NCBI GenBank assembly: GCA_965207855.1
Contig: OZ242310.1
Location: 3,444,202-3,508,201, forward strand
Length of the DNA stretch: 64,000 nt
Direction: 5' to 3'
Source of the DNA: Candidatus Poribacteria bacterium
Lineage (GTDB): Bacteria; Poribacteria; WGA-4E; WGA-3G
In this document: one piece after another, positions 1,734 to 62,148 of the stretch
How the letters are laid out: every line of letters starts with the position of its first letter
Position numbering within the stretch: position 1 is the stretch's first letter
The notes under the pieces: model-generated
What the model was told of the DNA's origin: nothing
The model's database searches: none
Seen by the model: only the letters and a program-made list of their open reading frames with translations
Position numbers and translations under genes: made by a program

Positions 1734-1972
1734 AAGCTTCCGTTCCCACTGATTCCCTGTAGGACGGGGAATGCCATACGGGGAAGCCCACACGGGAAAC
1801 CTCATACCGTTGGTTATTTCCTAATCCCGACTTCCCTATCTTCCATCCTTCCGTCTTATAGGAACTGACTTTATTAACCATCCTTGCGAATCGCTAACCG
1901 CTATCTGCCAACCATCAAAAGCATTTGACATAATCCCAAGATATGCTAAACTCTACATAAAGGAGACCCACA

Positions 1973-3028: not shown

Positions 3029-3113
3029 ACGTTTAAAGTTTATCCTCCGGCTGCTGGCGAGGTTAGGAAACCTCGCCAAGTATCAAATCCCGCATTTTCA
3101 GAAAGGAAATAAA

Positions 3114-9669: not shown

Positions 9670-9744
9670 GCGGGAGTAGCTCAGTGGTAGAGCTCCACCT
9701 TGCCAAGGTGGAAGTCGCGAGTTCAAATCTCGTCTCCCGCCCCA
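9670..9744 (+). tRNA. tRNA-Gly (anticodon GCC)
   Basis: The acceptor stem GCGGGAG/CTCCCGC pairs. The anticodon loop is TTGCCAA, a GTTCAAAT T-loop is present, and CCA is encoded. Confidence 0.85.
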
Positions 9745-9750
9745 TCTTAA

Positions 9751-9825
9751 GGTGGCGTAGCCAAGTGGTAAGGCCAGAGTCTGCAAAACTCTTATTCGTC
9801 GGTTCGATTCCGACCGCCACCTCCA
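9751..9825 (+). tRNA. tRNA-Cys (anticodon GCA)
   Basis: The acceptor stem GGTGGCG/CGCCACC pairs. The anticodon loop is CTGCAAA, the T-loop is GGTTCGATTCC, and CCA is encoded. Confidence 0.85.
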
Positions 9826-9844
9826 TTATTATCTTTCCAAGAAC

Positions 9845-9918
9845 GGGCGGTTAGCTCAGGTGGCTAGAGCGTTTGCTTGACATGCAAGAGGTCACAGGTT
9901 CAAGTCCTGTACCGCCCA
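9845..9918 (+). tRNA. tRNA-Val (anticodon GAC)
   Basis: The acceptor stem GGGCGGT/ACCGCCC pairs. The anticodon loop is CTTGACATG, as in bacterial tRNA-Val(GAC). The T-loop is GGTTCAAGTCC. Confidence 0.8.
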
Positions 9919-27509: not shown

Positions 27510-29438
27510 ATGCAAACTCGTGAAACTTCCATCTCATCGGCACGCGTTACAGCGAGGTCACTGATCTTAGGGATTTTATTCATCCCTGTTAATGTTTATT
27601 GGATGACGCTTGTTGAAGTGAAGTATTACTCCCTTGACGGTTCATGCCTCCCGCTTTTTATCCAACCGGTCTTCATTATGTTCGTCTGTGTTATCGCGAA
27701 CACACTCTTGAAACGTTTCGCGCCGCGGCAGATGCTCCAACAGGGAGAGTTGCTCACTGTCTACATCATGGTGGCGATCTCGTGTACGTTTGCCGGACAC
27801 GACACGATGCAGAATATGTTCGGGAGTATTGGGCATGCGTTCCAATTCGCAACGGACGAGAATGAGTGGCAGACGCTCTTTTTTCGGTATCTACCCGCTT
27901 GGCTTACCATCTCGGATACCCAAAGCCTCCAAGGGTTTTACGAGGGGGAAGCCACCTTCTACACGAAGCATAACTTCTCAATTTGGCTAAAACCCTTGGC
28001 GTTCTGGGGACTCTTTTTCCTGATTATGATGTTCATGATGCTTTGCATCAACACAATCGTCCGAAAGCGATGGGCAGAGCAAGAAAAACTCGCGTATCCG
28101 ATCATACAACTTCCGCTACGACTCTCCGAAGATGGCGGTATCAGCCTCCTCAAGAATCGGATGATGTGGATAGGCTTCAGCATCGCGTTCGCTATCGGGG
28201 TCATTAACGGGGTCAACTATCTTTTTCCGCAGTTTCCAGAGATCCCTTATATCAAGCGGACGGCTGTTTTCCAAAATATTTTCACTGACCGTCCATGGAA
28301 CGTCATTCGTGGGACCCGGATCTCTGTTTATCCTTTCGCAGTGGGTTTGGCGTTTTTCTTACCGTTGGACCTCTCGTTCTCGTGTTGGTTCTTCTTTGTT
28401 GTACGCTTAGCGGAATTCGTCATTGGCGCAGCACTCGGTACCCGCTATTTTCCTGCCCTCAACGAGCAGGCGTATGGTGCTTGGATCGCCCTTTTCCTGC
28501 TTGCCGTTTGGGTCACACGGCGACATCTGGTAGAAGTGATGAAAAAAGTATTTGGGTTTGAATCGCGTCTTGATGATTCCAACGAACCGATGCCGTATCG
28601 TGCCGCCTTTTTGGGAATTCTTGGATCACTTGTTGCCCTTGGGATCTTTTCCTCTATCGCAGGAATGGCGTTGTGGGTCGCCGGTCTTTTCTTTGGTGTC
28701 TATTTTCTGCTATCGTTTGCAATTACTCGTGTTCGGGCGGAACTCGGCACACCGCATGAAATTTACTACGTCAATCCGCACGACATGCTCGCGACAGTCG
28801 GTGGAACGCGGCAGTTTGACACGAGCAGTCTCACCATTATGTCGCTTTTCTATTGGTTCAATCGGGGCTACCGGAATCACCCAATGCCGAATCAGATTGA
28901 GGCGTTCAAACTCGCCGAATCAACGGGGATGGGCAACAGACGTTTGTGGGTGGCGATGTTGATAGCAATTATCGTCGGGATTTTGGTGACTTTTTGGGCG
29001 AATCTGGACATCACCTTCCGGAACGGTGCTGATGCGAAAGCCGGTGGATTCAAAGACTGGGTTGGCAGAGAATCGTTCAGTCGGCTGCAGCGATGGCTGC
29101 ATAACCCAACGGAACCGAACATGGTTGGTATGGGCTTTATGGGTATCGGCGCGCTCTTGACGTTTGTGATGATGTACATGCGGATGCATTTCTTGTGGTG
29201 GCCCTTCCATCCAGCGGGTTACGCGCTTGCCATCAGTTTTGCGATGGATTATTTCTGGTTCGCTTTCTTCGTGGCGTGGTTTTTGAAGTTAATGATTCTT
29301 CGGCACGGTGGCTTGCGGCTCCATCGTCAGGTCGCACCGCTCTTTTTGGGGTTAATATTAGGCGACTACGTCATCGGCAGCACCTGGGCAATCATCGGAC
29401 CGGCATCCGGCTTACGAACCTATAAAATCTTTATTTGA
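27510..29438 (+). CDS. Large polytopic membrane protein, unrecognised family (paralogue 1 of 3 in the window)
   Basis: 642 aa with 12 or more hydrophobic segments. Shares motifs HAFQFAT(D/P)ENEW, YPI(I/V)QLPL, PLDLSFSCWFF, R(V/I)RAE(L/I)G(T/P)P and LGLILGDY with 57331..59256 and 60059..61972. Confidence 0.6.
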   Translation: MQTRETSISSARVTARSLILGILFIPVNVYWMTLVEVKYYSLDGSCLPLFIQPVFIMFVCVIANTLLKRFAPRQMLQQGELLTVYIMVAISCTFAGHDTMQNMFGSIGHAFQFATDENEWQTLFFRYLPAWLTISDTQSLQGFYEGEATFYTKHNFSIWLKPLAFWGLFFLIMMFMMLCINTIVRKRWAEQEKLAYPIIQLPLRLSEDGGISLLKNRMMWIGFSIAFAIGVINGVNYLFPQFPEIPYIKRTAVFQNIFTDRPWNVIRGTRISVYPFAVGLAFFLPLDLSFSCWFFFVVRLAEFVIGAALGTRYFPALNEQAYGAWIALFLLAVWVTRRHLVEVMKKVFGFESRLDDSNEPMPYRAAFLGILGSLVALGIFSSIAGMALWVAGLFFGVYFLLSFAITRVRAELGTPHEIYYVNPHDMLATVGGTRQFDTSSLTIMSLFYWFNRGYRNHPMPNQIEAFKLAESTGMGNRRLWVAMLIAIIVGILVTFWANLDITFRNGADAKAGGFKDWVGRESFSRLQRWLHNPTEPNMVGMGFMGIGALLTFVMMYMRMHFLWWPFHPAGYALAISFAMDYFWFAFFVAWFLKLMILRHGGLRLHRQVAPLFLGLILGDYVIGSTWAIIGPASGLRTYKIFI

Positions 29439-31203: not shown

Positions 31204-31484
31204 AGGGTAAGTTGCGTTTCCTTTTCCAATCTTTCACCCCTCCAACCCTCTTTTTTTATTTTGCCCAAAAAATAGGAAAAAATACGTGCCTCTTGCTAAA
31301 AAAACAGGCAAAAATTTCCGGACGCTGACTATCTCGCGAAGGTATTGTTTGACAAAAGCCTTGTGGGTGTAGATGAAACCTGTAATTCGTACTTTTGGCA
31401 AGGTTTTTGCTAACAGCATATTAAAGTCGGCGCTCCTCGTTAATTCAGCACATTTACGTGAAATTGACTTGAGAAAGGTGGAGG

Positions 31485-32087
31485 ATGGAAACAGACACTT
31501 CAACGCTAAAGGTTTTAATCATTGATAACAATCAAGAGCGAGCAACTACATTAATCCGAATCCTAAAAGCAGGGCGGTACGAAGTTGCTGCACAGCTGCG
31601 TTTGCAGAGGGACTTAATAAGTCAGGTCTCACACTTAAAACCCGACATCATATTGATAGGCGTTGACTTTCTGGGACAGACAATACTTAGTTGGGTTGAG
31701 TCTCTTCACGCAAGCTATCCGTGTCCGATGGTCATGTTTTCGCGGGATGAGCGATCGGAAACGATTCAGGCAGCAACGCGGGCGGGTGTTTCTGCTTATG
31801 CTGTTGGAGAACTCACCGGAGCCAGAGTTAAAACGATCATTGAGGCGGCCGTTGCTCGGTTTTATGAATTCCGGGCATTACAGGAGGAACTTGAGAAAAC
31901 TAAGACAAGTCTCGCCGAACGTAAAATCATTGAGCGCGCAAAGGAGCTCCTCGCTCAACATCGCGGTTGTGACGAGGCACAGGCGTACCAAATTTTACGA
32001 AAGATGGCGATGAATCGCAGAAAACGCCTTGCGGAAGTCTCACAGGAGTTGTTATCTATGGCGGAGGTGTTGACGAATAAATTGTAA
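31485..32087 (+). CDS. nasT: ANTAR-domain response regulator (NasT/AmiR-type nitrate-assimilation antiterminator)
   Basis: Atypical receiver domain plus a C-terminal ANTAR helix pattern (LAERKIIERAKELL...AYQILRKMAMNRRKRLAEV). Confidence 0.75.
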   Translation: METDTSTLKVLIIDNNQERATTLIRILKAGRYEVAAQLRLQRDLISQVSHLKPDIILIGVDFLGQTILSWVESLHASYPCPMVMFSRDERSETIQAATRAGVSAYAVGELTGARVKTIIEAAVARFYEFRALQEELEKTKTSLAERKIIERAKELLAQHRGCDEAQAYQILRKMAMNRRKRLAEVSQELLSMAEVLTNKL

Positions 32088-32289
32088 AAAAATCTTGGTT
32101 AAGAGTTAGAAATTAAGAGACTTCTTTAACAATCCACCTCTTAACTTAAAACTTAAAACAAGAATAGCCCAAACCAAAGGTGGTTTGGGACCAGACATAG
32201 GTGTCTATTGGGTTGAGCTTTCGGTGCAACTTATAAACCGAAACTATATGCTCACCAATAGATACCTTTTTTATTTCCGTCTCTAACTC

Positions 32290-32480
32290 GGTAGGTTCGG
32301 TTTTGCGGCGTACTCGCCCCCGGTTCATGCCCTAAGGCATTCATACCGTTGATTCTGATTTGGAATGCCATACGGCATTCATACCCCGGTTCATGCCCAT
32401 AAGGCATGAATACCGTTGATTTGAAGTCCATACGGACTTCATACCGTTGATTCAAGGCATGAATACCGTTGATTCTGATT
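32290..32480 (+). promoter_or_regulatory. Structured leader of the nitrate-assimilation operon: 4-5 imperfect tandem ~35-40 bp units (GGCAT[TC/GA]ATACCGTTGATT...), each forming a short hairpin
   Basis: Hairpins ATGCC-CTAA-GGCAT, AATGCC-ATAC-GGCATT, TCATGCC-CATAA-GGCATGA, GAAGTCC-ATAC-GGACTTC and GCATGAAT...ATTCATGC. They sit between nasT and nirA. A related ATGCCATACGG word occurs at about 1760. Confidence 0.55.
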
Positions 32481-32546
32481 CATGCGACGTGCATTCCAAC
32501 TGCACCGATTAGAGATTCCACGTGTTTCTGAAGGAGGAGTGATAAA

Positions 32547-34139
32547 ATGAACCAATCGAAAAAGAGGGTTATCCCCGCAAGCCGAAAGGTGCGTTCCGCT
32601 CCCAGTTTAAAGGCACCCGCAGCTGCGAAAAAGCGAAAGTCTAAAGTAAATGCTGCCGAAGTGCTGAAGCGGGAGAAGAATGGATTTGAAGTTATCAATG
32701 ACCTTCCCAATTACATTCGGGACGGATGGGAGTCGATTCCAGCGAACGAGCGCGACCGCCTCAAGTGGGTAGGCGTCTTTTACCGAAAACAGACACCGGG
32801 GGCATTTATGATGCGTCTCCGTATGTCCAGCGGTTTTTCTAATGCCGAGCAGTTTCGCGCGATTGCTGAAATCAGTGAAACATACGGACCCGGATTTGTA
32901 GATCTCACAACACGGCAACAAATTCAGCTCCGCGGTTTCGCTATTGAAAACGTCCAGCATATCTGGAATCGACTTGAGGCGGTAGGTTTGGATTCACTCC
33001 AAACCGGTTTTGACAACATCCGCGGTGTCATCGGATGTCCCGTTGCTGGGTTGACACCGAATGAACTGTTTGATGCGTCGCATGTCGCCAGAGAATTCAC
33101 GAGACTCTTCGTTGGGAACAAGGAGTTTACCGATATTCCGCGCAAGTTTAATGTCGGTATTACAGGATGTCTTGATAACTGCACCCATACGGCTTCGCAG
33201 GATATTGCCCTTACGCCAGCGATAAAGGAAATTGAAGGTCAAGAGACACACGGCTTTAACGTCGCTGTTGGTGGAAAGATGGGGTCTGGTGGCTACACGC
33301 TTGCGAAGCCACTTGATGCGTTTGTTACTCCCAAAGAAGCTGCAGTCTTGTGTGCTGACATTGCCTTGATTTTTCGAGATTACGGAGCCAGGACAGCTCG
33401 AAATAAATCGCGTCTCGCTTTTCTGATTCAGGAGTGGGGGGTAGAAAAATTCCGAGAGGAAGTCGAGACGCGGCGGCACAGAAAACAACCGCTCCTGACC
33501 GCTGGAAAAGATGTGCGCGGCAAAAAGAAAACCGACCATACCGGTATCTTCTCTCAGAAGCAGCCACACCTCAACTATGTCGGACTCGTCGTGCCTGTCG
33601 GACGGATCACGACAACACAACTTTTCGAGGTGGCACGTCTCTCAGATGAATACGGTAACGGCGACATCCGTCTCACGCAGGGACAGAATCTGATTATCAC
33701 CAATGTTCCTGACGAGCGAATCGGGGCCTTAACAGCAGAACCGCTCCTACAGGAACTCCGTTATGATCCCTCGGAAATCATGCGTGGTATGGTCAGTTGC
33801 ACAGGTATCGACTACTGCCACTTCTCGCTCATTGAGACTAAGGAACGCGCCATGGAAGCAATCCGACATTTGGAGGCAAAACTCGGCAATACCAAACCAC
33901 TGACTATCCATTGGTCGGGATGTCCAAACGGGTGTGGCAATCACGCCGCCGCAGACATCGGACTTCTTGGTAAGAGGGTTAAAATTGACGGAGTCGTTAC
34001 CGATGCCGTGGATGTATTCGTCAAGGGGGATGCCAGTGCTAACCCTAAAGTTGCACCGAAGTTATTAGAAAATGTCCCTTGCGACGATCTACCGCGAGTG
34101 CTTGAAGGTCTCGTGCCTTATCTTTCAAGGAAAATTTAA
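32547..34139 (+). CDS. nirA: Ferredoxin-dependent nitrite reductase (NirA; sirohaem/4Fe-4S nitrite-sulfite reductase family)
   Basis: Cys cluster CTGIDYC...SGCPNGC. An N-terminal K/R-rich extension is present. Length is 530 aa. Confidence 0.8.
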   Translation: MNQSKKRVIPASRKVRSAPSLKAPAAAKKRKSKVNAAEVLKREKNGFEVINDLPNYIRDGWESIPANERDRLKWVGVFYRKQTPGAFMMRLRMSSGFSNAEQFRAIAEISETYGPGFVDLTTRQQIQLRGFAIENVQHIWNRLEAVGLDSLQTGFDNIRGVIGCPVAGLTPNELFDASHVAREFTRLFVGNKEFTDIPRKFNVGITGCLDNCTHTASQDIALTPAIKEIEGQETHGFNVAVGGKMGSGGYTLAKPLDAFVTPKEAAVLCADIALIFRDYGARTARNKSRLAFLIQEWGVEKFREEVETRRHRKQPLLTAGKDVRGKKKTDHTGIFSQKQPHLNYVGLVVPVGRITTTQLFEVARLSDEYGNGDIRLTQGQNLIITNVPDERIGALTAEPLLQELRYDPSEIMRGMVSCTGIDYCHFSLIETKERAMEAIRHLEAKLGNTKPLTIHWSGCPNGCGNHAAADIGLLGKRVKIDGVVTDAVDVFVKGDASANPKVAPKLLENVPCDDLPRVLEGLVPYLSRKI

Positions 34140-34142
34140 AAA

Positions 34143-35492
34143 ATGGACATAAAAAATAAAGCAACACACATAAATCTATTTAGCTTAAAAACGATCCAGA
34201 TGCGTACCTTCCATACCACATGGTTCGCCTTTTTCTTAGCCTTTTTTGGATGGTTCGGTATTGCTCCGCTTATGGCGATTATCCGTGAAGACCTGATGCT
34301 AACAAAAGCAGAGGTGGGTAATACTATTATCGCTTCCGTCGCAATTACAGTATTGGTGCGAGTCTTAATCGGACCGCTTTGCGACAAGATCGGGCCTCGA
34401 AAGGCGTATACATGGCTGCTGATTCTTGGTTCACTACCGGTCATGGGTATCGGACTCGCTCAGAATTACGAGACGTTTCTGCTCTTTCGACTCGCGATCG
34501 GTGCAATCGGTGCCTCGTTCGTTATCACACAGTATCACACCTCGGTGATGTTTGCCCCGAATTGTGTCGGCACAGCGAATGCGACAACAGCCGGATGGGG
34601 GAATCTCGGTGGCGGTGTCACGCAGATGGTCATGCCGCTCATCTTTACGGCTATTCTCAGTTTCGGTGTGGACCAATTCCTCGGATGGCGGTTGGCGATG
34701 CTTATTCCCGGTGTCGCGCTATTTATCACTGGATTCGCCTATTACTTCTTTACCAAAGATGCCCCGGATGGCAATTATAAAGAACTCCGTGAACGCGGCG
34801 AACTTGAACCCGCGAAAGGCACAGGTATGGCGTCTTTCATGTCGGCGATTAAAGACTACCGCGTCTGGGCACTCTTTGTTATCTATGCCGTCTGTTTCGG
34901 CGTGGAGCTCACTATTAACAATATCGCCGCACTCTACTATCACGACCAGTTCCAGTTAGATGTCAAGACCGCAGGACTCATCGCTGGACTGTTCGGTTTG
35001 ATGAATATCTTCGCACGGACGGTTGGCGGTGTTTTCTCCGATTTCTTCTCGAAGAGGATGGGGCTCCGCGGGCGTGTCCGGTTCTTATTCTTTGTGCTGT
35101 TAGGTGAGGGGATCATGCTGATAGTCTTTTCGCAAATGGCGGTGCTTATCCTTGCTGTTGGCGCGATGATGGTCTTTAGTCTCTTTGTACAAATGTCGGA
35201 AGGCGCGACCTATGGAATCGTCCCTTTCATCAATAGAAAAGCGTTAGGGGCTGTTGCGGGTATTGTCGGCGCGGGTGGAAATGCGGGTGCCGTTGCTGCG
35301 GGTTTCCTGTTCCGTGCTGAGAGTATCACACTGCAGCAAGGCTTGTTGTATCTCGGTGTGATGGTTACAATCGCCTCGTTCGCTACGGTATTGGTGAAAT
35401 TCTCACCCGTAGTCCAAGCCGCAGAGAAAAAAGCATTTGATGCCGCACTCGCCGAGAGGCAGCGTTTAAAAGCCGAAGGTGCTTTATCCTAA
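34143..35492 (+). CDS. narK: MFS nitrate/nitrite transporter NarK/NrtP
   Basis: NNP signature AGWGNLGGG, with 12 TM segments. Confidence 0.85.
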   Translation: MDIKNKATHINLFSLKTIQMRTFHTTWFAFFLAFFGWFGIAPLMAIIREDLMLTKAEVGNTIIASVAITVLVRVLIGPLCDKIGPRKAYTWLLILGSLPVMGIGLAQNYETFLLFRLAIGAIGASFVITQYHTSVMFAPNCVGTANATTAGWGNLGGGVTQMVMPLIFTAILSFGVDQFLGWRLAMLIPGVALFITGFAYYFFTKDAPDGNYKELRERGELEPAKGTGMASFMSAIKDYRVWALFVIYAVCFGVELTINNIAALYYHDQFQLDVKTAGLIAGLFGLMNIFARTVGGVFSDFFSKRMGLRGRVRFLFFVLLGEGIMLIVFSQMAVLILAVGAMMVFSLFVQMSEGATYGIVPFINRKALGAVAGIVGAGGNAGAVAAGFLFRAESITLQQGLLYLGVMVTIASFATVLVKFSPVVQAAEKKAFDAALAERQRLKAEGALS

Positions 35493-35568
35493 TCTGACTT
35501 CGATCTATAAAACTAACAAATAACCTGATTTTGACTACAAAAAATCGTAAAAAAATTGGTCAATAAAA

Positions 35569-37677
35569 ATGAAAAATGCAACGGGGAAAGCCGTCTGTCC
35601 TTATTGTGGTGTCGGTTGCGTCATCCGCGCAACCGTTAGTGATAACAAGATTACAAGAATTTCAGCGGACGATGATGTCGCCCCAAATTACGGTATGCTC
35701 TGTCCAAAAGGCGCACATCTTAAACAGGTATTTCAGAACCACGATGGAAGGCTCGCGTATCCAATGATTCGCGACCGGCGCGGCGAACCACCGCGTCAGG
35801 TCTCATGGGACGAAGCGATTACTTTCACGGCAAACCGGCTTCACGAAATTCAGTTGGAGCACGGCAAGGATTCCATCGCGCTTTACGGTTCTGGTCAATT
35901 AGACACAGAGGCTTCTTACATTTTTAACAAATTTTTCAAAGGCTTCCTCCGGACGAACAACGTAGATACCAATAGTCGGCTCTGTATGTCTTCAGCAGTC
36001 GTCGGTTACATGCAAGCGTTCGGTTCCGACGGACCGCCTACCTGCTATGACGATATTCAGCATGCGGATGTATTCCTGATTATCGGCGCGAATATGGCGG
36101 TCAATCATCCCGTGCTTTTCCAGATGATTCGCAAACGGCGGGCACTGGAGCCAAACACACGGATTATCACCGTGGATCCGCGCCGTACCAAGACAGCGGA
36201 TTTCTCGGATATCCATGTCCCGCTTGCCCCCGGCAGCGATGTTGCTTTTCTCCAACTCATTGCCAAACGGCTTCTTAGAGTCGGACGCGTCAATGGACGT
36301 TTCATCCGTCGGCGGACTGAAAACTATAGTGTTTATGAGAGCCATTTAAAGAGCCTTGACGAAGACGAACTTCTCACCGCTTGCGATATTCATCCTGCGC
36401 GTATTGACGAGATTGTTGAATACCTTTCTAAACCGAGTCGCCTGCTCAGTTTTTACTGTCAAGGCACGAATCAAAGCACAAGCGGCGTTGACAAGAATGT
36501 TGCGCTCATCAATTTACATCTCCAGTTAGGTGAAGTCGGTATAAGAGGTGCGGGGCCTTTCTCGTTGACGGGACAACCGAATGCGATGGGCGGAAGAGAG
36601 GTCGGTTATTTGTCCCACCAATTGCCCGGCTACCGCGTCGTCACCAATGATATGCACCGCGCCTATCTGGAAGGTGCGTGGCGTGTTCCACCCGGAAGCA
36701 TTGATCCGAATCCGGGATTAACGGCAGTGCCAATGTTTGAGGCAGCGGCTGAAGGAGAAGTCCGCGCACTCTGGATCGCCTGCACGAACCCCGCAGTCAG
36801 CATGCCCGATACAAAGGTATCGCAGGCAGGACTCCGTCGCGCAGATCTCGTTATTGTCCAGGATTGTTACTATCCAACAGAGACAGCCGAATACGCCGAT
36901 GTGCTGCTCCCCGCCGCACAGTGGGGTGAAAAGCAAGGCACAATGACGAACAGCGAGCGACTCGTTGTCCGAAGCGATCAGTTCCTTATACCCCCTGGTG
37001 AAGCACAGCCGGATTGGTGGATATTCGCACAGGTCGCCAGAGCGATGGGATTCAAGCGGAATTTCGACTTCTACAACGCCGAAGAGGTGTGGGATGAATA
37101 TCGACTCTTGACAGCAGGCACACCGTGTGATCAGCTGGGAATGACGAATGAACGCCTCGCCAAGACCTCTTTACGCTGGCCCTGTCCACATCCACGGCAT
37201 CCCGGCACCGCTCGCCGATACACCCGCACGAAGTTTTTCACTGAATCGGGGAAAGCACAGTTCAAAACGCCTATCTATCAACCGCCCGATGAGAAAGTAA
37301 CTGAGGCGTTCCCATTCGGCTTGACGACGGGACGTATTGAGAGTCAGTGGCACACCCGCACCCGAACCGGCAAAGTGCCGCAGCTGGTGCGTAAGGACCC
37401 TGAACCCTTTGTCGAAATCCATCCAGACGATGCAGCGGAGAACAGTGTTCAAGATGGTGAATGGGTCTATCTTGTCGGGAGGCGGGGAAGGTGCTATGCC
37501 AAGGCACGTGTTACGGAAGCGATCCGGCGCGGCTTGCTCTTTACGCCGTTCCATTGGGGGGACCTCTTCCATGCGGAGACCAATGCGAACTACGTAACGA
37601 ATCCTGCGTTTGATCCGGTCTCCAAGCAACCCGAGTTAAAATTCTGCGCTGTGCGGATTGAGGTTGAAGATTCGTAG
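35569..37677 (+). CDS. nasA: Assimilatory nitrate reductase catalytic subunit (molybdopterin oxidoreductase, NasA/NarB)
   Basis: N-terminal 4Fe-4S motif CPYCGVGC, a molybdopterin-binding domain pattern, and a C-terminal MopB barrel. Confidence 0.85.
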   Translation: MKNATGKAVCPYCGVGCVIRATVSDNKITRISADDDVAPNYGMLCPKGAHLKQVFQNHDGRLAYPMIRDRRGEPPRQVSWDEAITFTANRLHEIQLEHGKDSIALYGSGQLDTEASYIFNKFFKGFLRTNNVDTNSRLCMSSAVVGYMQAFGSDGPPTCYDDIQHADVFLIIGANMAVNHPVLFQMIRKRRALEPNTRIITVDPRRTKTADFSDIHVPLAPGSDVAFLQLIAKRLLRVGRVNGRFIRRRTENYSVYESHLKSLDEDELLTACDIHPARIDEIVEYLSKPSRLLSFYCQGTNQSTSGVDKNVALINLHLQLGEVGIRGAGPFSLTGQPNAMGGREVGYLSHQLPGYRVVTNDMHRAYLEGAWRVPPGSIDPNPGLTAVPMFEAAAEGEVRALWIACTNPAVSMPDTKVSQAGLRRADLVIVQDCYYPTETAEYADVLLPAAQWGEKQGTMTNSERLVVRSDQFLIPPGEAQPDWWIFAQVARAMGFKRNFDFYNAEEVWDEYRLLTAGTPCDQLGMTNERLAKTSLRWPCPHPRHPGTARRYTRTKFFTESGKAQFKTPIYQPPDEKVTEAFPFGLTTGRIESQWHTRTRTGKVPQLVRKDPEPFVEIHPDDAAENSVQDGEWVYLVGRRGRCYAKARVTEAIRRGLLFTPFHWGDLFHAETNANYVTNPAFDPVSKQPELKFCAVRIEVEDS

Positions 37678-37749: not shown

Positions 37750-38091
37750 TTAGTCGGTTCTGATAGAATCTGTTTCCAAATCTAAAACGAAGGTGATAGT
37801 GTTCTTAATTTGTGTCATCATATTGTCTGAAAGTTTGCCAAGCCTCCGCTCAAGTCGAACTTTCTCTATAGAACCTAATCCTGGCACATTAACGTAAGAT
37901 TGTTGATTAAGAAATCTCAATCGTGGAAGTGCTACTTCATACGGACTTTCCCTATATTGGGTTGTTAAGGGGATATAGATTATTAGATTTCGTGGTGGAT
38001 CTGGATCGTAACGGGATACCACAAGCACAGGTCGCGTTCTCGCGGTTAAACCGAGGTCGGCTAACCAAATCTCACCGGGATATAGGTTCAT
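37750..38091 (-). CDS. mazF: MazF/PemK-family type II toxin
   Basis: 113 aa. GEIWLADL...RPVLVVS is the PemK pattern. Confidence 0.75.
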   Translation of the reverse strand: MNLYPGEIWLADLGLTARTRPVLVVSRYDPDPPRNLIIYIPLTTQYRESPYEVALPRLRFLNQQSYVNVPGLGSIEKVRLERRLGKLSDNMMTQIKNTITFVLDLETDSIRTD

Positions 38092-40707: not shown

Positions 40708-40995
40708 ATGGCGAAACGAACGAGATACACCCCCGAGTTTAAAGCAGCAGTCGTGCTGGAGGCCCTCAGCGGTGAAAGTTCAAAGCAGAACTCTGCCGGC
40801 GACATAACCTCAGCGAACAACAACTCTCGAAGTGGAAGCAGCAAGCGATTGAAAACTTTGCGTCTCTGTTTGGCTCCAAGGATAAAGCGTCAGCGGCGGA
40901 TGCGTCGCGTATCGCTCACCTTGAGCAACTCGTTGGGCGTCTCACTGTCGCCTTAGACATTGAAAAAAAAGCCGCGAAGTGGTTGCCCTAACGGC
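40708..40995 (+). pseudogene. IS3 orfA (transposase HTH) carrying an apparent 1-nt frameshift near 40780 in addition to the programmed site
   Basis: Frame 1 gives MAKRTRYTPEFKAAVVLEALSGESS. A second frame continues with the canonical KAELCRRHNLSEQQLSKWKQQAIENF...LDIEKKAAKWLP. Confidence 0.55.
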
Positions 40996-41833
40996 ATCAA
41001 AGAAACGAGAAATGGTGGCAAAAGTGCACAAGGCTTCTTCATATTCGATTCGGCAGATTTGTAAGACCCTCGGCTACAACCGGAATCTTCTCTATTATCA
41101 GCCGAAGCGCCCCCCTTCTCAAGAGGGACTGCGAACGAGAATAGAGGAGTTAGCGGCAACCTATCCAACATACGGATATAGACGTATCACGAAGTTGTTG
41201 GCGGCTGAAGGGCACACCGTTGGGTATAAGCGCGTCGCCCGGTTGATGAAAGAAGCCCATCTCTCGGTGGCTGTCAAACGTGCGTGTCAAACGACCCACG
41301 CCGCTGAGAGTCGGCAACCGTGGCAGAATCGCCTGAAGACCCTTGAGATCTGTCGTTGCGATCAGGTCTGGGTCGGCGATATCACCTACGTCCGCCTCAA
41401 CAGACGCTTCGTTTATGTCGCTCTGCTCATGGATGTCTTCACGCGCATGATTCGAGGGTGGAATCTCAGTCAACACTTGACGCAATCTTTGACCTTGCGC
41501 CCCTTAGAGCAAGCTTTAGACGACAGGGTTCCCGAGATTCATCACTCTGATCAAGGCGTGCAGTATCTTTCAAAGGACTATATCTCACTGCTGAGGCAGC
41601 ATGGCGTTGAGATTTCGGTCGCACACAGAGGACGCCCTTGGGAGAACGGATACGCTGAACGGTTGATCCGCACCCTCAAGGAAGAAGAAGTCCACCTTAA
41701 CGACTATCAGAACATCCACGAAGCCAGAGATCGCATCGAGCATTTTATCACACAGGTGTATCATCAGAAACGCCCACATTCGGCGTTAGGCTATTTGACA
41801 CCTATGGAATTTCAGCAACAAAACTTGTCTTAA
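40979..41833 (+). CDS. IS3 orfB (DDE integrase core)
   Basis: rve-type catalytic core with the DDE residues. Confidence 0.85.
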   Translation: MVALTASKKREMVAKVHKASSYSIRQICKTLGYNRNLLYYQPKRPPSQEGLRTRIEELAATYPTYGYRRITKLLAAEGHTVGYKRVARLMKEAHLSVAVKRACQTTHAAESRQPWQNRLKTLEICRCDQVWVGDITYVRLNRRFVYVALLMDVFTRMIRGWNLSQHLTQSLTLRPLEQALDDRVPEIHHSDQGVQYLSKDYISLLRQHGVEISVAHRGRPWENGYAERLIRTLKEEEVHLNDYQNIHEARDRIEHFITQVYHQKRPHSALGYLTPMEFQQQNLS

Positions 41834-46386: not shown

Positions 46387-47283
46387 TTATTTCCACGGTG
46401 GTGTTTCCGGCAGCAATTCCTGAAATTTATCAATCAACGCCGTCTCATAAGCACCCGCATATTGCCCGTTGAAAAACTTTTCCAGCACTTCATCAAGGAA
46501 GAGCTGCCACGATGCGTCCTCAGAACCCGGATTGACAGGAAAAAACAGGGCACCCACATCTCGCGCCGCTTTCAGATCCCCCGGAGAATCGCCAAGCATC
46601 AGAACGTGGTTCTCCGCATATCTGTCTTTCGTCGTTATCGTAAGATGTTCCGTTTTCGTTCCCATCTCCTGTCCGGCAATCACAGCGACATAGTTATCAA
46701 TCTCGTGTTCCGCCCATTCGCGTTGGAGTGCTTCGTCGGGTGTAGCAGACACAACGATAACATCCGCCTTGTCCTGAAGCCCTTGTAAGGTCTCGCGTAC
46801 CCCAGGAAAAGGGGGCAGATTATAGACAATCTCTTCGACGCTTTCGTTCACGCCGAGACTCCATTCCATAACTTGGCTCAGTTCCTCGTGCCGCTCGCCG
46901 GTTGCGTTATCAATCGCTGCTTGTAGTGCTGGATTCCCCAGTTTCGTTTCGGTTTCAGACCATTCCCTTAAGTAGGGAAGTTCTGGCACCGCAACACCCA
47001 TATTCTGCACGAGTGGCATCTCGCGTAAGAAATCGCACACCAGTAGAATCGCCTTAAACCGGTTCGTGCCGCGCGTTGTTGAGTAGAGATTCACAAAATC
47101 CCATGCTTGATGCACCTGCCGTGAAATGGATGCTAAGCCGAAATGCTTGACGAGGTTCACACTGAAACAGTCGTTGTGCTTAACCTCCATACTATTGAAA
47201 ACACAACCGTCGGAATCAATTCCGACAAAGAACTCGTGTTGCGGTTGAAAATCGTATAATGCCTGTTGTGCTCCGTAATCCAT
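46387..47283 (-). CDS. HAD-superfamily hydrolase
   Basis: Motif I VGIDSDGCVF and motif IV LMLGDSPGDLKAARDVG. Confidence 0.65.
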   Translation of the reverse strand: MDYGAQQALYDFQPQHEFFVGIDSDGCVFNSMEVKHNDCFSVNLVKHFGLASISRQVHQAWDFVNLYSTTRGTNRFKAILLVCDFLREMPLVQNMGVAVPELPYLREWSETETKLGNPALQAAIDNATGERHEELSQVMEWSLGVNESVEEIVYNLPPFPGVRETLQGLQDKADVIVVSATPDEALQREWAEHEIDNYVAVIAGQEMGTKTEHLTITTKDRYAENHVLMLGDSPGDLKAARDVGALFFPVNPGSEDASWQLFLDEVLEKFFNGQYAGAYETALIDKFQELLPETPPWK

Positions 47284-49006: not shown

Positions 49007-49558
49007 TTAGACATTTGCATATTCTTGAATAATCTCCTGAAGTGTTGAGTCGGGGTTATATTCGCGTTTGCGTTTGATATTGGCAAAATCATGTTCAATC
49101 GGATTATAATCCGGGGAATAAGGTGGCAGAAATAGCAGCCTCGCACCCGTCGCCTCTACGAGCTCTCGCGTCCGAGAAGTCTTGTGGAGCATCGCATTAT
49201 CTAAGATGAGGACATGACTCGGAGTCAAATGTGGACATAACTCCTCGGCTAACCAGTCGTTGAAATCGGCGGATTTACACCCGCCTTGAAGCAATCGCAC
49301 AGCTCTGAAAGTTCCTTGAAAACGCGCCGCAAGGAGTGTGGTCGTCCGGGTGCGTTGGCTCGAAATCAACCCATAGACGGCTTGACCTTTCGGGGCATAC
49401 CCGAAGCGTCTATGACTTTCGTCTCGGAAACCGCTTTCATCGGCGTAAACTACACATTTGCCTGCGCGCTTGAGCGTAGCGAGTTCCTGACGGTAGGCGG
49501 CGCGTTGTTTCGGACATCGCTCCTTATAGCCGAGTGTTTTTTTTTCGGGTAATCCCAA
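49007..49558 (-). CDS. IS630-family transposase, DDE (DDE_3) catalytic part
   Basis: ADESGF...ILDNAMLHKT...LPPYSPDYNPIE is the DD(35)E pattern. Confidence 0.75.
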   Translation of the reverse strand: MGLPEKKTLGYKERCPKQRAAYRQELATLKRAGKCVVYADESGFRDESHRRFGYAPKGQAVYGLISSQRTRTTTLLAARFQGTFRAVRLLQGGCKSADFNDWLAEELCPHLTPSHVLILDNAMLHKTSRTRELVEATGARLLFLPPYSPDYNPIEHDFANIKRKREYNPDSTLQEIIQEYANV

Positions 49559-49844
49559 GCGTTTTCAAGCCATAGTAAACACAAAACTCCGAGACGCCCA
49601 AATCAGCGGCGCGTTCGGCTTGCGTCTGATCCGGGAAGTCAGCGACATGTTTTTCAAGTGCCTGCAGATCAAGGGTTCTTGGACCCCGGGGCCCCGGTTT
49701 CTCACGCACCAACGGGTCTTCGGCATTCAACCATGTATACAGAGTTGCGCGTGCGATGGAAAACTGCTGGCAGGCTTCGGTCTTTTTACCGCCAGCTGCG
49801 ATGAACGCTAAAACGCATTTGCGGAAATCTGATGAATAAGCCAT
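49524..49844 (-). CDS. IS630-family transposase, N-terminal HTH part (joined to the DDE part by frameshift)
   Basis: HTH segment CQQFSIARATLYTWL, and a 35-nt overlap containing the A9 run. Confidence 0.7.
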   Translation of the reverse strand: MAYSSDFRKCVLAFIAAGGKKTEACQQFSIARATLYTWLNAEDPLVREKPGPRGPRTLDLQALEKHVADFPDQTQAERAADLGVSEFCVYYGLKTLGITRKKNTRL

Positions 49845-49907
49845 AATACCAAAAGGCTAACATAAATCTAATAAAGTGTCTATTTATTTATCTGGGTTAC
49901 CATAGTT

Positions 49908-51101
49908 TTAAAAGTTATTCTTTAGTAAAGTCAATGCTTGTTTAGGATGTGCGGCGAAATATCTCATTGTTTTAGCGATAGCTTCATATCCTGCTAAGCG
50001 TAATATAGAAAGTGCGGTGTTCCGCAAAGCTGCCATGACTGCCGGGATTGCGCCACAGCGGACTTGAGAAGCATCTTCACCGAGAAGCATGTCTCGGATC
50101 CAATGGGACTTATTTTCTATCGCCCAATGTCCGCGCTTGAGGCGTAAAAGGTCAGCTGCGGTGGCACGGTTAGGTTCAAGGCTCGTGATGCCATAGTGTG
50201 TCTGGCAGGCGACTTCTCCGGTTCGTAGGTTCTTGCGGGTGTATGTGCACTCGAAGACCTGCCGGACCCCTGGCCAGTCTATGTATTCATTAAGTGCGGT
50301 GCTTGCCGTCAAACGTCGTGTTTCAAAGCGTCCATGGGCTTGGTCAACGGTTTTGCGAGTGTCAAGGGTTTCTCCCCAGTCTTGGTGTTCTGCCTTGAGG
50401 ATGTTATAGGCGGTCTGAAAGGTTGTTTCGGTAGGTCGCCGAAACAACCTTTCAATATCTTCATAGACCTGTTTATGGTTGGCTTTGACGGGTAAAACGT
50501 AATCCCCGCCTGATTCTAAAACCGATGCGCAAAAACGGCGTTGCGTCAATAGAGCATCTGCTGTCACGACCTTGCCAGAAACATCAAACGCCTTGAGGAT
50601 TTCACGCGAGACGGGCACTTCATGCGTCTTCTCTGACATCGCTTTTTGCGTGAGAGTAATACCGAGTTCATGAGAAACGACTGACATCAAATGCGTGAAC
50701 TTCGCACCTTGTTTCTTGCTACCCCGTAAGGTCTTGCCATCTATAGCGACAGCCGTCAGACCGCCTTGACTGCCCCAACCCAAGTCCTCAAGCGCACTTG
50801 AAGCCCACTGCGTCAGCACGGTTTCTAAGTCATCAATGTCTAATCTACGAAAAAGATTGTAGAATGTTGCGGCACATGGTGTTTTCCTATGTGTGAACCC
50901 TAAGGCTTTTCTGAGTGCCTTGTAGGTGCGTCCGTATTCAGCAATAGCTGCATAGCTGCGATATCCAGACATCATGGCAATGATAGCGAGTGCGAGGATT
51001 GCCTTTAGTGGATGTCTTTTGCCTTTTTCCTTGCGTGGGTCTGCGACGGATGCTAACATATCAAGTAAGTGGCGAGAGGGTTTTCTCGTCATGAGCTTCA
51101 C
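49908..51101 (-). CDS. ISAs1-family (IS4-related, H-repeat-associated) transposase
   Basis: 397 aa. The N-terminal DDE_Tnp_1_assoc-like region (KRHPLKAILALAIIAMMSGYRSYAAIAEYG) and the C-terminal GHWAIENKSHWIRD are ISAs1 hallmarks. Confidence 0.75.
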   Translation of the reverse strand: MKLMTRKPSRHLLDMLASVADPRKEKGKRHPLKAILALAIIAMMSGYRSYAAIAEYGRTYKALRKALGFTHRKTPCAATFYNLFRRLDIDDLETVLTQWASSALEDLGWGSQGGLTAVAIDGKTLRGSKKQGAKFTHLMSVVSHELGITLTQKAMSEKTHEVPVSREILKAFDVSGKVVTADALLTQRRFCASVLESGGDYVLPVKANHKQVYEDIERLFRRPTETTFQTAYNILKAEHQDWGETLDTRKTVDQAHGRFETRRLTASTALNEYIDWPGVRQVFECTYTRKNLRTGEVACQTHYGITSLEPNRATAADLLRLKRGHWAIENKSHWIRDMLLGEDASQVRCGAIPAVMAALRNTALSILRLAGYEAIAKTMRYFAAHPKQALTLLKNNF

Positions 51102-57330: not shown

Positions 57331-59256
57331 TCAATGCCAGACAATATACGTCGGCATTTCCAATACCAACCCAATCAGGCTCCACACACATCCAAGCGTA
57401 TAATCCCCCAAGATGAGTCCTAAAAAGAACGGTACCGCCTGCCGATAGAGCTTCACGCCCCCAATCTTCAGTACAATTGCCTTTGCCAACCAACTTAGGA
57501 AGATTGGAAACCACAGACCGCTCATCCCCGTCCCACTCACCAGCACATAACCACCGGGATGCAGGGGCCACCAGAGAAATCGAATCTTCATAATCATCAG
57601 GAATATCGTAAATAGGAAACTGCTGCCGATAACACTCAGTTCCGGCACACTCGTCTCCCGTGGACTAACAAGCCACGTTTGTAGGCGATTAAACGTTTCC
57701 CATCCCATGTAAACAATCCAACCACGTGCTTTGCTCCCTGCCCCCATATCGTAAAGGACGTGTAGATACGCCCAAAACGTTATCAGTATCCCGAACACAA
57801 TCGCCAAGATCATCCCAATAAGGAGTTGACGATACCCGATACGACTCCGTTCTGCCAACCTGAACGCCTCCAACTCACTCGGTGTCGGATGTGCGCGGAA
57901 ACACCGAACAAATGGATAGAGAAACGTGAGTCCTGTTAGATTCGCTGCACCGAGACGACGCGTGCCTAATGCAAGCACCATCGTCCGTCCAGGATCGACA
58001 AAGATGAGCTGATGCAACGGCGGTCCGATCTCTGCGCGGATACGGGTAATACCGATAACTAACGGGAAGTAGAACACGAAGAACAGCCCTATCGCCCAAA
58101 ACGTCATCCCCATCTGATGGCAAAAGAAAAAAAGAAACAGCATCCCAACGGTAAAAAGACCCGCCGCAGTCCGATAGCGCATCGGTTCACCGGAGTCGTC
58201 GGGTGCAGCTTCACCACGGCGTTGTGCGATGCCGAAAACTTTCCGCAGAATGCGCCCGTAGTGCCGCCGACCCATCCACAGCGGAATGCAGCCAAACGCA
58301 ATCCATGCCCCTGTCTGCTGCTCAAGGTGATAGATGTTTCGTGCCCCAAACGCGTCTGTTACAATCAGTTGGATACGACTGAAAAGCCAGAAAAACCAAC
58401 ACGAAAACGAGAGATCCAGCGGTGTGAAGAACATCAAACCGATACTAAACGGATAGAAGGATATCCGAATCGGTCCCATCGCGCTCCACGGTTTTGAACT
58501 GAATTGCCCGATTGTTTTGCCTTTGATGGGGAGTGCAGGTATATCAGGAAACAGGTAGTTCAATCCATTCAACAATTCCGCGCTCCCTGCGAGTGCGAAG
58601 CCTAGCCACATCCACGGCGAAGTAAAGAAGCGTTTCGGGTTGCTTGTCAGAGCCAAGGGGAGTTGAACGATTGGATAGTTTAGGCGTTCGTTTTCGGTCC
58701 ACTGTTTTCGGAGAAAAACGGTTACCGCCAGCAGCGTCAACCAGAGCGCGATGACAAAACTCGACCACGCCAGCACGGGGGGTATCCACGCATCTAAGTG
58801 AGAAGGGGTATAGAGAGTAGAATCACCGTTATAGAACCCATCCAAAACGCGCGGGCTTTTAATAGCGATCCACGTCGGGATGTGGTGTCCAAAAAGCGGA
58901 ATCCATTCGTTTTCTGGCGTTGCAAATTGGAAGGCGTGTGCGAGGACAGGGATAAGATACCCCATCATCGTGTGTCCGCTAATCGTCGTTAGCATCACCA
59001 CCATGACATAGATGGTCTGCAAATCCGCCTGCGACATCGCCAGACGCGGCACGAACCGTTGGAACAGTAGATTGATAAGTACAAAGACGAGGAGGGTGAA
59101 AACGGCGTTGAAGAATAGAGACGCGATTGTGAGCTGCGTAGAGTGCCACACCTCTGTTCCCATCAGACACCAGTAACTATTGAAAGCAACAAGCACCAAT
59201 CCAATCAGCAGAATATGCGGTTTGACGAGGTTCTGCTTACTATTACTGTTAGTCAT
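57331..59256 (-). CDS. Large polytopic membrane protein, unrecognised family (paralogue 2)
   Basis: 641 aa. About 40-45% identical to 27510..29438, and about 85-90% identical to 60059..61972. Confidence 0.6.
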   Translation of the reverse strand: MTNSNSKQNLVKPHILLIGLVLVAFNSYWCLMGTEVWHSTQLTIASLFFNAVFTLLVFVLINLLFQRFVPRLAMSQADLQTIYVMVVMLTTISGHTMMGYLIPVLAHAFQFATPENEWIPLFGHHIPTWIAIKSPRVLDGFYNGDSTLYTPSHLDAWIPPVLAWSSFVIALWLTLLAVTVFLRKQWTENERLNYPIVQLPLALTSNPKRFFTSPWMWLGFALAGSAELLNGLNYLFPDIPALPIKGKTIGQFSSKPWSAMGPIRISFYPFSIGLMFFTPLDLSFSCWFFWLFSRIQLIVTDAFGARNIYHLEQQTGAWIAFGCIPLWMGRRHYGRILRKVFGIAQRRGEAAPDDSGEPMRYRTAAGLFTVGMLFLFFFCHQMGMTFWAIGLFFVFYFPLVIGITRIRAEIGPPLHQLIFVDPGRTMVLALGTRRLGAANLTGLTFLYPFVRCFRAHPTPSELEAFRLAERSRIGYRQLLIGMILAIVFGILITFWAYLHVLYDMGAGSKARGWIVYMGWETFNRLQTWLVSPRETSVPELSVIGSSFLFTIFLMIMKIRFLWWPLHPGGYVLVSGTGMSGLWFPIFLSWLAKAIVLKIGGVKLYRQAVPFFLGLILGDYTLGCVWSLIGLVLEMPTYIVWH

Positions 59257-61972: not shown

Positions 61973-62148
61973 TTCGTAGCACCTCAACACAAATTTGCGT
62001 CTATTATACAGTGTTTTGTGTCTGTTTTCAAGAGGGATATCGGACAATCTTATTTTTTTGAAACCTCTTACGAATTGCTGTATAATTTGCTTCAATTTGA
62101 CATCATAGAAAATGAGTCGCGTCTTATATCTATCTCAGATTTAGGAGA

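Follow-up and report, generated by a model that had tools for sequence, protein, structure and literature searches.

Background

The leader described here touches on two kinds of known systems, the RNA targets of ANTAR regulators and the dispersed intergenic repeats of bacteria. Among the latter, the BOX elements of Streptococcus pneumoniae are arranged in the order boxA-boxB(n)-boxC, the central module being absent or repeated in tandem up to several times. A second group is formed by the GTAG-tagged REP elements and BIMEs (Nunvar 2010, PMC2817692; Di Nocera 2013, PMC3733652), a REP being a single palindrome of 20-40 nt with an unpaired GTAG at one end (PMC3733652). ANTAR targets consist of two tandem stem-loops of at least 3 bp each with hexaloops carrying A1 and G4 (Ramesh et al. 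2012, PMC3369931), and the leader examples include EutV/eutP of E. faecalis, NasR/nasF of Klebsiella, and AmiR/amiE of P. aeruginosa (PMC3369931). The nitrate/nitrite-responsive NasS-NasT systems have been described in Paracoccus, Pseudomonas, Azotobacter, and Bradyrhizobium (PMC3795266, PMC10783516, PMC6759348).

The sequence analysed in this work, referred to as the window, is a stretch of 64,000 nt from a Candidatus Poribacteria bacterium. We propose that two unrelated things very probably share the leader in front of its nitrate-assimilation genes: a NasT attenuator switch, and a dispersed repeat whose hairpin array lies outside the switch.

Results and discussion

The nasT locus and the downstream operon

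The genes of the locus and the translation start of the operon are as follows.

31485..32087, + strand: nasT-like gene, 200 aa, with a divergent (pseudo-)receiver domain and an ANTAR RNA-binding domain
32531..32549, + strand: Shine-Dalgarno sequence AAGGAGG and nirA start codon ATG (32547), read from the sequence
32547-34139, + strand: nirA, NIR_SIR nitrite reductase (ferredoxin-type), by Pfam
34143-35492, + strand: narK-like MFS transporter, by Pfam
35569-37677, + strand: nasA, molybdopterin nitrate reductase, by Pfam

A first-pass annotation of this DNA had reported an ANTAR gene followed by an untranslated region of about 450 nt and by genes for a nitrite reductase, a NarK-type transporter, and NasA, and all of this was confirmed: the ANTAR domain in the ORF at 31485-32087 is detected with a Pfam E value of 5.5e-18, the untranslated gap between nasT and nirA spans 32088-32546 (459 nt), and the Pfam families of the three downstream products are those expected. 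The predicted target operon nirA-narK-nasA (32547..37677, + strand) has the identical gene order in 14 of 14 related loci, and AAGGAG and the position of the nirA start are conserved across all leaders compared. The basic N-terminal extension of NirA, earlier singled out as unusual, is real and is kept in 11 of 11 poribacterial orthologues. A candidate promoter for nasT is located at 31395-31422.

The receiver domain of NasT is divergent, with a Response_reg score (26.7 bits) below the Pfam cutoff. The nearest solved relatives are Rv1626, the REC-ANTAR response regulator PDB 6wsh (which we take to be EutV), NasR, and AmiR, and when NasT is aligned to them a Gly is found at the position of the phospho-acceptor Asp and another at that of the conserved Lys. 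Because the receiver lacks both residues, control of NasT probably comes from a ligand or from a partner protein whose gene lies elsewhere. A scan of 46 ORFs of the window found no NMT1/NrtA-like (NasS-type) domain, in agreement with the earlier remark that a NasS-like gene is missing from it.

A predicted dual-hexaloop ANTAR target overlapping a terminator

Upstream of the hairpin array, at 32168-32276, the leader carries a predicted canonical dual-hexaloop ANTAR target together with an overlapping terminator.

32168..32189, + strand: P1 of the ANTAR target, 8-bp stem CCCAAACC/GGTTTGGG, hexaloop AAAGGT (A1, G4)
32193..32206, + strand: P2, antiterminator hairpin, 4-bp stem AGAC/GTCT, hexaloop ATAGGT (A1, G4)
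32199..32276, + strand: predicted intrinsic terminator, a long interrupted stem followed by TTTTTTATTT

P1 and P2, joined by a linker of 3 nt, were the sole A..G.. hexaloop hairpins in a scan of the 459-nt leader. The arms of the terminator lie at 32199-32218 (5') and 32250-32267 (3') with an apical extension between them and the U-tract at 32267-32276, and the sole T-run of at least 5 in the leader is directly 3' of this long stem. The terminator fold has an energy of -46.7 kcal/mol (z -6.8), and its two arms were also found as an inverted repeat. Since the 5' arm begins at 32199 inside the P2 loop and takes in the 3' halves of both that loop and the P2 stem, the formation of P2 and that of the terminator should be mutually exclusive. 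A simple terminator scan with a loop limit of 3-8 nt missed the attenuator terminator because its stem has the apical extension. P1, P2, and the T-run (32168-32272, upstream of the array) had been overlooked in the first-pass annotation.

The bare dual-hexaloop pattern is not rare, a regular-expression scan giving 2-3 loci in the window versus about 1 per shuffle, so that it is context, conservation, and covariation that give the assignment its weight. When the leader was used as query against Rfam, which holds no ANTAR-target model, no relevant match was obtained at E values up to 10.

Conservation was assessed in an alignment of the switch from 11 poribacterial leaders, whose NasT proteins are 60-96% identical. 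In P1, 92% of the cells are paired, with compensatory changes in 3 pairs; in P2, 100% are paired, with one compensatory change from A-U to G-C; and for the two hairpins taken together the paired share is 94.7% and 4 pairs are compensatory. A1 and G4 of the loop are invariant in the 11 leaders while positions 2, 3, 5, and 6 vary, and as position 6 of the P1 loop is among these, the loop is not closed. The terminator comprises 24 pairs (97-99% paired in the 11 leaders), 6 of them with compensatory changes, a result reached in none of 500 shuffles. At the column corresponding to window position 32206, a U to C change in leader L013 is compensated both in the P2 partner and in the terminator partner. 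Covariation thus backs both predicted folds, P2 and the terminator.

The hairpin array and the element that encloses it

Downstream of the terminator, the following features were mapped, together with a related sequence elsewhere in the window.

32280..32515, + strand: long stem-loop around the repeat element, formed in MFE folds by TCTCTAA (32280-32286) and TTAGAGA (32509-32515) plus the outer stem of the element
32290..32318, + strand: 5' module of the repeat, with GGTAGG (containing the unpaired GTAG tag), outer-stem arm TTCGGTT, and hairpin H1 (GGCG-TACT-CGCC)
32319..32481, + strand: hairpin array of about 5 central hairpin modules, consensus GGTTCATGCC-NNNN-GGCATGAATACC-GTTGATTC
32482..32507, + strand: 3' module of the repeat, with hairpin H3 (ATGC-GACGT-GCAT), TCC, and outer-stem arm AACTGCACCG
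1740..1815, + strand: relic of the hairpin-module family in an unrelated intergenic region, GAATGCCATACGG ... CTCATACCGTTGGTT, nhmmer E 0.04

The array had been described as 4-5 degenerate units, each folding into a hairpin, and this holds: a 27-nt unit is present five times (starts at 32334, 32372, 32401, 32432, and 32454, with spacings of 38, 29, 31, and 22 nt), and the MFE fold of the array contains five small hairpins with loops CUAA, AUAC, CAUAA, and AUAC and one larger loop, the stems being located at 32327-32340, 32363-32380, 32391-32411, 32424-32441, and 32456-32485. The leader fold has a z-score of -6.9. Within a span of 140 nt there are four exact copies of the 12-mer ATACCGTTGATT, and with up to 1 mismatch it gives 5 matches in the window versus 0.39 expected, a count that none of 100 shuffles reached. 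The array was not detected by TRF because its units differ by indels.

The array is an expanded, copy-number-variable central module of an intergenic repeat dispersed throughout the Poribacteria. The parts of this repeat are a GTAG tag that stays unpaired, an outer stem that covaries, and, inside that stem, hairpins H1 and H3 with 0 to n hairpin modules between them; a minimal copy has about 60 nt (the outer stem and two small internal hairpins), and copies with modules have about 93 to 220 nt. The 5' module in the leader matches a profile of 64 minimal copies with an nhmmer E value of 1.2e-05, and the 3' module is an exact match to the signature used in the genome scan (nhmmer E 2e-04).

Scanning species-representative genomes with this 19-20-nt 3'-module signature gave at least 93 stretches, in both orientations, many per genome and mostly intergenic, with at least 13 on one chromosome; among the matches listed, 79 of 80 were in Candidatus Poribacteria metagenome-assembled genomes (MAGs). 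Copies with both ends numbered 86, of which 68 lack a central module, about 10 carry a single one, and 2 carry two, and the window copy has the longest central insert among them (a spacing of 177 nt versus 17 nt in the 68). Eighty of 96 copies, in both orientations, are outside ORFs of at least 100 aa. The outer stem covaries (TTC/GAA, CGA/TCG, TGC/GCA), as does H1 (GGCG/CGCC versus GGTG/CACC), and GGTAGG precedes the outer stem in most copies, being replaced by GCTGG in one subfamily. Paralogous copies are present in other intergenic regions of the related loci, and on metagenome contigs the same module is found in 2-4 tandem copies within other repeats framed by GTAGG...CCTAC; a search of such contigs with the doubled 12-mer gave 37 matches, 22 of which were unrelated tandem or coding repeats. 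The word matches noticed earlier near position 1760 of the window are genuine (an exact 14-mer at 1768-1781 and an 11-mer at 1802-1812) and fall within the relic listed above. Occurrence of the hairpin repeat in unrelated intergenic regions had been named beforehand as an observation that would speak against a regulatory array, and it is found in many such regions of the Poribacteria.

With the minimal repeat element as query, Rfam yielded no relevant match at E values up to 10, and nothing relevant to a described poribacterial repeat family was found in the literature. The repeat is apparently an undescribed family of the REP/BIME/BOX-like kind, located here in a 5'UTR. No Y1_Tnp (RAYT) domain was detected by Pfam in the ORFs of the window, and no ORF lies between the inverted copies in L039 or L105. 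As no transposase (RAYT) was found, it is the distribution and the presence or absence of copies that suggest mobility.

Proposed model and alternative explanations

The nitrate-assimilation operon is predicted to be under an ordinary NasT (ANTAR) two-hairpin/terminator switch working by the standard ANTAR mechanism. Transcription entering the leader would by default halt at the intrinsic terminator (32199-32276). Active NasT would bind the adjacent hexaloop hairpins P1 (32168-32189) and P2 (32193-32206), and the formation of P2 would deprive the terminator stem of its 5' base, allowing RNA polymerase to continue into nirA-narK-nasA. The array lies 3' of the terminator and 5' of the ribosome-binding site. 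Its expansion most likely took place in situ, the ATACCGTTGATT direct repeats having allowed slippage or duplication; the array would be dispensable for NasT control and would contribute at most a stable structure in the 5'UTR.

Compatible with this model, though unlikely in our estimate, is co-option of the repeat element in cis, its module number tuning the stability or the translation of the nirA mRNA. At least six lineages (the window, L001, L003, L005, L008, and L009) retain the element in the corresponding place of the leader, and flanks specific to the leader lengthen its closing stem: TCTCTAA/TTAGAGA is present in the window, L001, L003, L005, and L008, and in L009 the arms differ and stay complementary (GTCCC/GGGAC, a compensatory variant). 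Such persistence in several lineages, with complementary flanks of its own, could mean that the element has acquired a local role. Its multi-branched fold is strong (-92 kcal/mol) and lies shortly upstream of the ribosome-binding site. BOX elements can influence the stability of mRNAs and gene expression. Known REP elements can likewise affect both (PMC3733652). Against co-option, the element is wholly missing from L007 and L010-L013, which also lack the flanking arms, yet the attenuator, the Shine-Dalgarno sequence, and the operon are kept in all of them, L007 being the closest relative (NasT 96% identical) and having neither array nor element. Moreover, the content between the stem arms ranges from 3 nt to about 195 nt across the leaders (the outer stem alone in L003 and L005, no central module in L008, one in L001, and about 5 in the window), and the predicted folds show no sequestration of the Shine-Dalgarno sequence by the element.

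A broader version, to which we give slightly less credence still, is that the GTAG-tagged, cloverleaf-like element of about 60 nt could be an undescribed, phylum-wide functional family of structured ssDNA or RNA, with module copy number tuning the operon. If this were true, the number of modules, which among close relatives is 0, 1, or about 5, would be a heritable knob for translation or mRNA stability, layered over NasT antitermination of the nitrate-assimilation operon.

It is very improbable that NasT acts on the array itself, whether as an ANTAR target of a variant kind or as a terminator/antiterminator ladder. This was the reading of the first-pass annotation, of which the NasT-type antiterminator locus with a leader terminator stands and the role given to the array does not. 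The array does sit in the leader beside an ANTAR gene and does consist of several short hairpins. Within 32319-32481, however, there is no A..G.. (A1/G4) hexaloop hairpin and no T-run of at least 5, and none of the hairpins is followed by a U-tract; the predicted terminator of the leader lies upstream of the array, at 32199-32276. A conserved, predicted canonical target with its terminator is already present upstream of the array, the closest relatives keep nasT and the operon with the array missing or reduced to 0-1 units, and the modules recur genome-wide in unrelated intergenic regions.

That the four exact 12-mers within 140 nt are DNA operators for a transcription factor (e.g., a nitrogen regulator) at a promoter inside the leader is the least credible explanation and was rejected on distribution: the repeat module to which the 12-mer belongs recurs in numerous unrelated intergenic regions and contexts, and the 12-mer is missing from the orthologous leaders. 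The promoter scan found no promoter-like site on the + strand of the leader.

Significance

With an ordinary NasT switch and a separate repeat as the preferred reading, a false lead is removed, i.e., there would be no variant mode of ANTAR recognition here, and the textbook dual-hexaloop attenuator is extended to an uncultivated phylum with good covariation support. A poribacterial nasT with a pseudo-receiver domain and without an adjacent nasS bears on nitrate sensing. When leaders and non-coding RNAs are annotated, the abundant, modular GTAG-tagged repeat can cause confusion; as a marker, it might be of use in strain typing.

Comparison with known systems

As in the known ANTAR leaders (PMC3369931), the switch has adjacent A1/G4 hexaloop hairpins, a P2 that overlaps the 5' base of the terminator, and an adjoining ANTAR gene. 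It differs in that, within this clade, the terminator has the unusual length of about 69 nt including the apical extension (a 43-nt version is found in more distant Poribacteria) and in that the P1-P2 linker is just 3 nt, which makes no mechanistic difference. The likeness to NasS-NasT systems lies in the REC and ANTAR domains of the protein, the assimilatory nitrate/nitrite reductase genes, the leader RNA hairpins, and a receiver domain that is apparently not phosphorylatable. Unlike in those systems, no nasS (NrtA-like sensor) gene adjoins nasT in the window or in 14 related loci, and the poribacterial operon has a ferredoxin-type NirA, not NirBD.

The repeat resembles REP elements and BIMEs in being high-copy, mostly intergenic, and present in both orientations, in having an unpaired GTAG 5' of an imperfect palindrome with a stem that covaries between subfamilies, in its mosaic combination with other hairpin modules, and in its presence or absence between close relatives. 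It departs from REP in that the core of about 60 nt has two internal mini-hairpins and so is not a small single palindrome, in that one subfamily has GCTGG for GGTAGG, and in that a weak search (tblastn with an E. coli RayT query) of 1.15 Mb of sampled flanks gave no match to a RAYT (Y1 HUH transposase) gene. With BOX it has no sequence relationship, the phylum is a different one, and the poribacterial central module is itself a hairpin; as in BOX, the 5' and 3' modules pair and enclose a variable central module, and the copies lie in intergenic regions and untranslated leaders.

RESULTS AND DISCUSSION

Organization of the nasT-nirA locus

The first-pass annotation had described an ANTAR regulator gene, an untranslated region of ~450 nt and the gene order nirA-narK-nasA; all are present, the gap being 459 nt (coordinates without a locus name are those of the window):

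31485-32087, nasT-like ORF, 200 aa; domains: ANTAR (E 5.5e-18), divergent receiver
32088-32546, leader in the gap between nasT and nirA, 459 nt
32168-32189, leader hairpin P1, CCCAAACC-AAAGGT-GGTTTGGG
32193-32206, leader hairpin P2, AGAC-ATAGGT-GTCT
32199-32276, terminator
32319-32481, hairpin array
32547-34139, ferredoxin-type nitrite/sulfite reductase (nirA)
34143-35492, MFS NarK-like transporter
35569-37677, molybdopterin nitrate reductase (nasA)

The order nasT-nirA-narK-nasA is kept in all loci of relatives compared (NasT identity 96, 94, 92, 89, 85, 84, 79, 75 and 60%). Candidatus Poribacteria are the source of the closest database proteins and of the genomes with the dispersed repeat. 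In most relatives the nasT locus is syntenic with the gene at 27510-29438 (+), one of three for large paralogous DUF6785+DUF6784 proteins in the window (the others at 57331-59256 (-) and 60059-62095 (-)). Directly 3' of nasA is a MazF/PemK toxin gene (37750-38091, -), followed downstream by three transposase genes or fragments (rve, DDE_3, DDE_Tnp_1; 40979-41833 (+) and 49007-51101 (-)), which indicates a neighbourhood rich in mobile elements. Elsewhere in the window are three clustered tRNA genes (9670-9918) and an Rfam group II intron match (RF00029, 872-947 (+), 55.6 bits); Pfam has no match to the ORFs on either side of it (315-845 and 1115-1519).

In alignment with Rv1626, NasT has Gly in place of both the phospho-acceptor Asp (in IILIGVDF) and the conserved Lys, and the receiver domain looks like a pseudo-receiver. 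The loss of these residues makes control by sequestration or ligand probable, as in NasS-NasT and AmiC-AmiR (PMC3795266). As annotated previously, no NasS/NrtA-like gene is present in the window, and none adjoins nasT in 14 related loci. The sole promoter-like site found near the leader on the + strand in a promoter scan is upstream of nasT (31395-31422), so the operon may be transcribed by read-through from nasT. The basic N-terminal extension noted for NirA (MNxSKKK..RKVRSAPSLKA..KKRKSKINAAE, residues 1-38, 32547-32660) is kept in 11 of 11 poribacterial orthologues examined, which argues that it is a real, selected feature.

An ANTAR target and terminator upstream of the array

ANTAR substrates have been defined as a pair of mini-hairpins, each with a hexaloop that has A at position 1 and G at position 4, in which the second hairpin and the 5' base of the terminator overlap (Ramesh et al. 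2012, PMC3369931). P1, P2 and the terminator of the window have the same architecture. P1 and P2 are the only hairpins in the entire leader with A..G.. hexaloops and at least 3 bp. The 5' arm of the terminator stem (AGGTGTCTATTGG...) begins at 32199, within the P2 loop, and its 3' arm ends at 32267 (inverted repeat I3); the predicted fold has -46.7 kcal/mol (z -6.8). The leader's single run of five or more T (32267-32272) lies at the end of this long stem and precedes the array. The relaxed dual-hexaloop pattern has two further matches in the window (1492-1534 (+) and 47181-47228 (-)), one within a coding region; such a number is expected by chance (~1 per shuffled window), and neither is likely to be a NasT target.

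The segment from P1 to the terminator was aligned in 11 leaders. P1 and P2 are 94.7% paired, with four pairs changed on both sides, and sliding the partners lowers pairing to 22-49%. The 24 terminator pairs are 97-99% paired, six with compensatory changes, a level reached in 0 of 500 shuffles. At the column of 32206 most leaders have U, but that of locus L013 has C, and in L013 the bases paired with it in P2 and in the terminator have both changed from A to G, which argues that both alternative folds are under selection. Both loops, of P1 and of P2, have an unchanging A at position 1 and G at position 4, while position 6 of P1 is T, C, A or G; the loop is therefore an open hexaloop and not the tetraloop drawn in the MFE fold. 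Judged by architecture and covariation, the leader is shown to be a NasT-type ANTAR attenuator in which the predicted P2 and terminator folds are mutually exclusive. Active NasT would bind the P1 and P2 loops and block terminator formation, allowing nirA-narK-nasA to be transcribed.

Directly 5' of P1 is a 7-nt tandem repeat, AACTTAA/AACTTAT (32143-32159; 3032-3066 in locus L008), whose copy number differs among close relatives (window 2.4, L001 3, L008 5); its position suggests that it could alter promoter or leader spacing. A conserved motif upstream of P1 in several relatives, ATTGCCAGTTTTGCCTAATACAGAC and variants (L005 4660-4700, L003 4730-4760, L009 4650-4680, L010 4690-4720), may be a promoter or operator; it is missing from the clade of the window, which has a TTAAGAG...CTCTTAA hairpin instead.

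The array as a dispersed repeat in expanded form

The array reported in the first-pass annotation is confirmed as a 27-nt unit repeated five times at a spacing of 22-38 nt and predicted to fold into five small hairpins with 4-5-nt loops. The word ATACCGTTGATT occurs exactly four times, and with up to one mismatch has five matches in the window versus 0.39 expected. The proposal that the array is a variant ANTAR target or a terminator ladder is refuted by the canonical P1, P2 and terminator upstream, by the absence of the array from close relatives and by copies of the repeat in unrelated intergenic regions, an outcome that the first-pass annotation had itself named as refuting: the switch has all the sequence-level hallmarks of an ANTAR target, whereas the array has none.

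Past the terminator, nested insertions and deletions set the leaders apart. In L007 (NasT 96% identical) the U-tract leads directly to the Shine-Dalgarno sequence, with no repeat. L005 and L003 have only the hairpin GGTAGGTGCGGTT-TCC-AACCGCRCCGATT; L008 has TGCGGCGTGCTCGC...ATGCGACGGGCAT added within the loop of this hairpin; L001 has one hairpin module added (GGTTCATGCC-ACAC-GGCATGAATACC-GTTAATTC); and the window has ~5 modules. L010-L013 carry unrelated sequence at this position. The L003 leader (NasT 89% identical) also has two other MITE-like insertions, before P1 (4604-4925) and after the terminator (5058-5215, with TAACTTG apparently duplicated at its ends), and small insertions seem to be concentrated in the nirA leader. 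This comparison of leaders shows the array as lying outside the conserved switch module; sequence and covariation show it to be a dispersed repeat in expanded form. It probably grew by slippage between its own direct repeats, with an effect that is probably neutral or mildly modulatory.

Copies of the same architecture were found in other intergenic regions of related loci, together with partial ones; those in the window account for the repeat word noted near 1760:

L005 6538-6675, copy between nirA and narK
L008 1354-1414, copy between AIRS-domain and methyltransferase genes
L001 3021-3048, truncated copy
L005 8190-8250, isolated hairpin modules
1740-1815, isolated hairpin modules

When a species-representative genome collection was scanned with the 3'-module signature ATGCGACGTGCATTCC(N)AAC, at least 93 stretches were found versus ~9 expected by chance. 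Among the matches listed, 79 of 80 are from Candidatus or uncultured Poribacteria MAGs, some of them from sponges, and one 5.24-Mb chromosome has at least 13 separate stretches. Copies outside ORFs of at least 100 aa number 80 of 96, the remainder being mostly at ORF edges, in short, probably spurious ORFs, or chance matches; both orientations relative to neighbouring genes are seen. A 5' module lies upstream in 86 of the 99 signature matches listed. The 5' and 3' modules lie side by side (spacing 17 nt) in 68 of these 86 two-ended copies, enclose one hairpin module in ~10 (spacing 49-63) and two in 2 (spacing 84 and 88); the window copy, at 177, is the longest. A few have A-rich filler in place of hairpin modules, which makes the element's centre a general expansion site. 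Short tandem repeats of the A-rich AAATCCGCAG type form the central filler in the database stretches L055 (7181-7290), L034, L077 and L028 (chromosomes OY764073.1, OZ253447.1). Searching metagenomes for pairs of closely placed ATACCGTTGATT words gave 15 further loci, in which the hairpin module of the array is present in 2-4 tandem units between different framing sequences (GTAGGAGCGACC...GGTCGCTCCTAC); tandem module expansion is thus a general property of the family, rather than one of the nirA leader.

Structure of the element and comparison with known repeats

The minimal element has the consensus CC-GGTAGG-TTCGGTT-TT-GCGGCGTACTCGCC-CAA-ATGCGACGTGCAT-TCCT-AACCGAA-CCGG. Subfamilies differ by covarying bases in its outer stem (TTC/GAA, CGA/TCG, TGC/GCA; CAC/GTG singly), which is 95.7% paired versus at most 87.5% in shuffles; hairpin H1 of the 5' module covaries as well (GGCG/CGCC, GGTG/CACC, AGCG/CGCT). 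The one-module form folds into the outer stem and three hairpins (z -5.6 as RNA, -6.2 as DNA). There was no match in Rfam, a weak search found no RAYT, and no description of such a repeat family in Poribacteria was found in the literature.

The NasT attenuator of the nirA leader is thus of the canonical type, in a phylum new for it, and the 5'UTR holds the longest sampled copy of an apparently undescribed REP/BIME/BOX-like repeat family. The poribacterial repeat resembles GTAG-tagged REP/BIME elements in its unpaired GTAG, covarying palindrome, abundance, extragenic location and mosaic arrangement (PMC3733652; PMC2817692). Unlike REP, it is larger and has internal hairpins. The A-B(n)-C modularity of pneumococcal BOX elements is shared by the poribacterial repeat.
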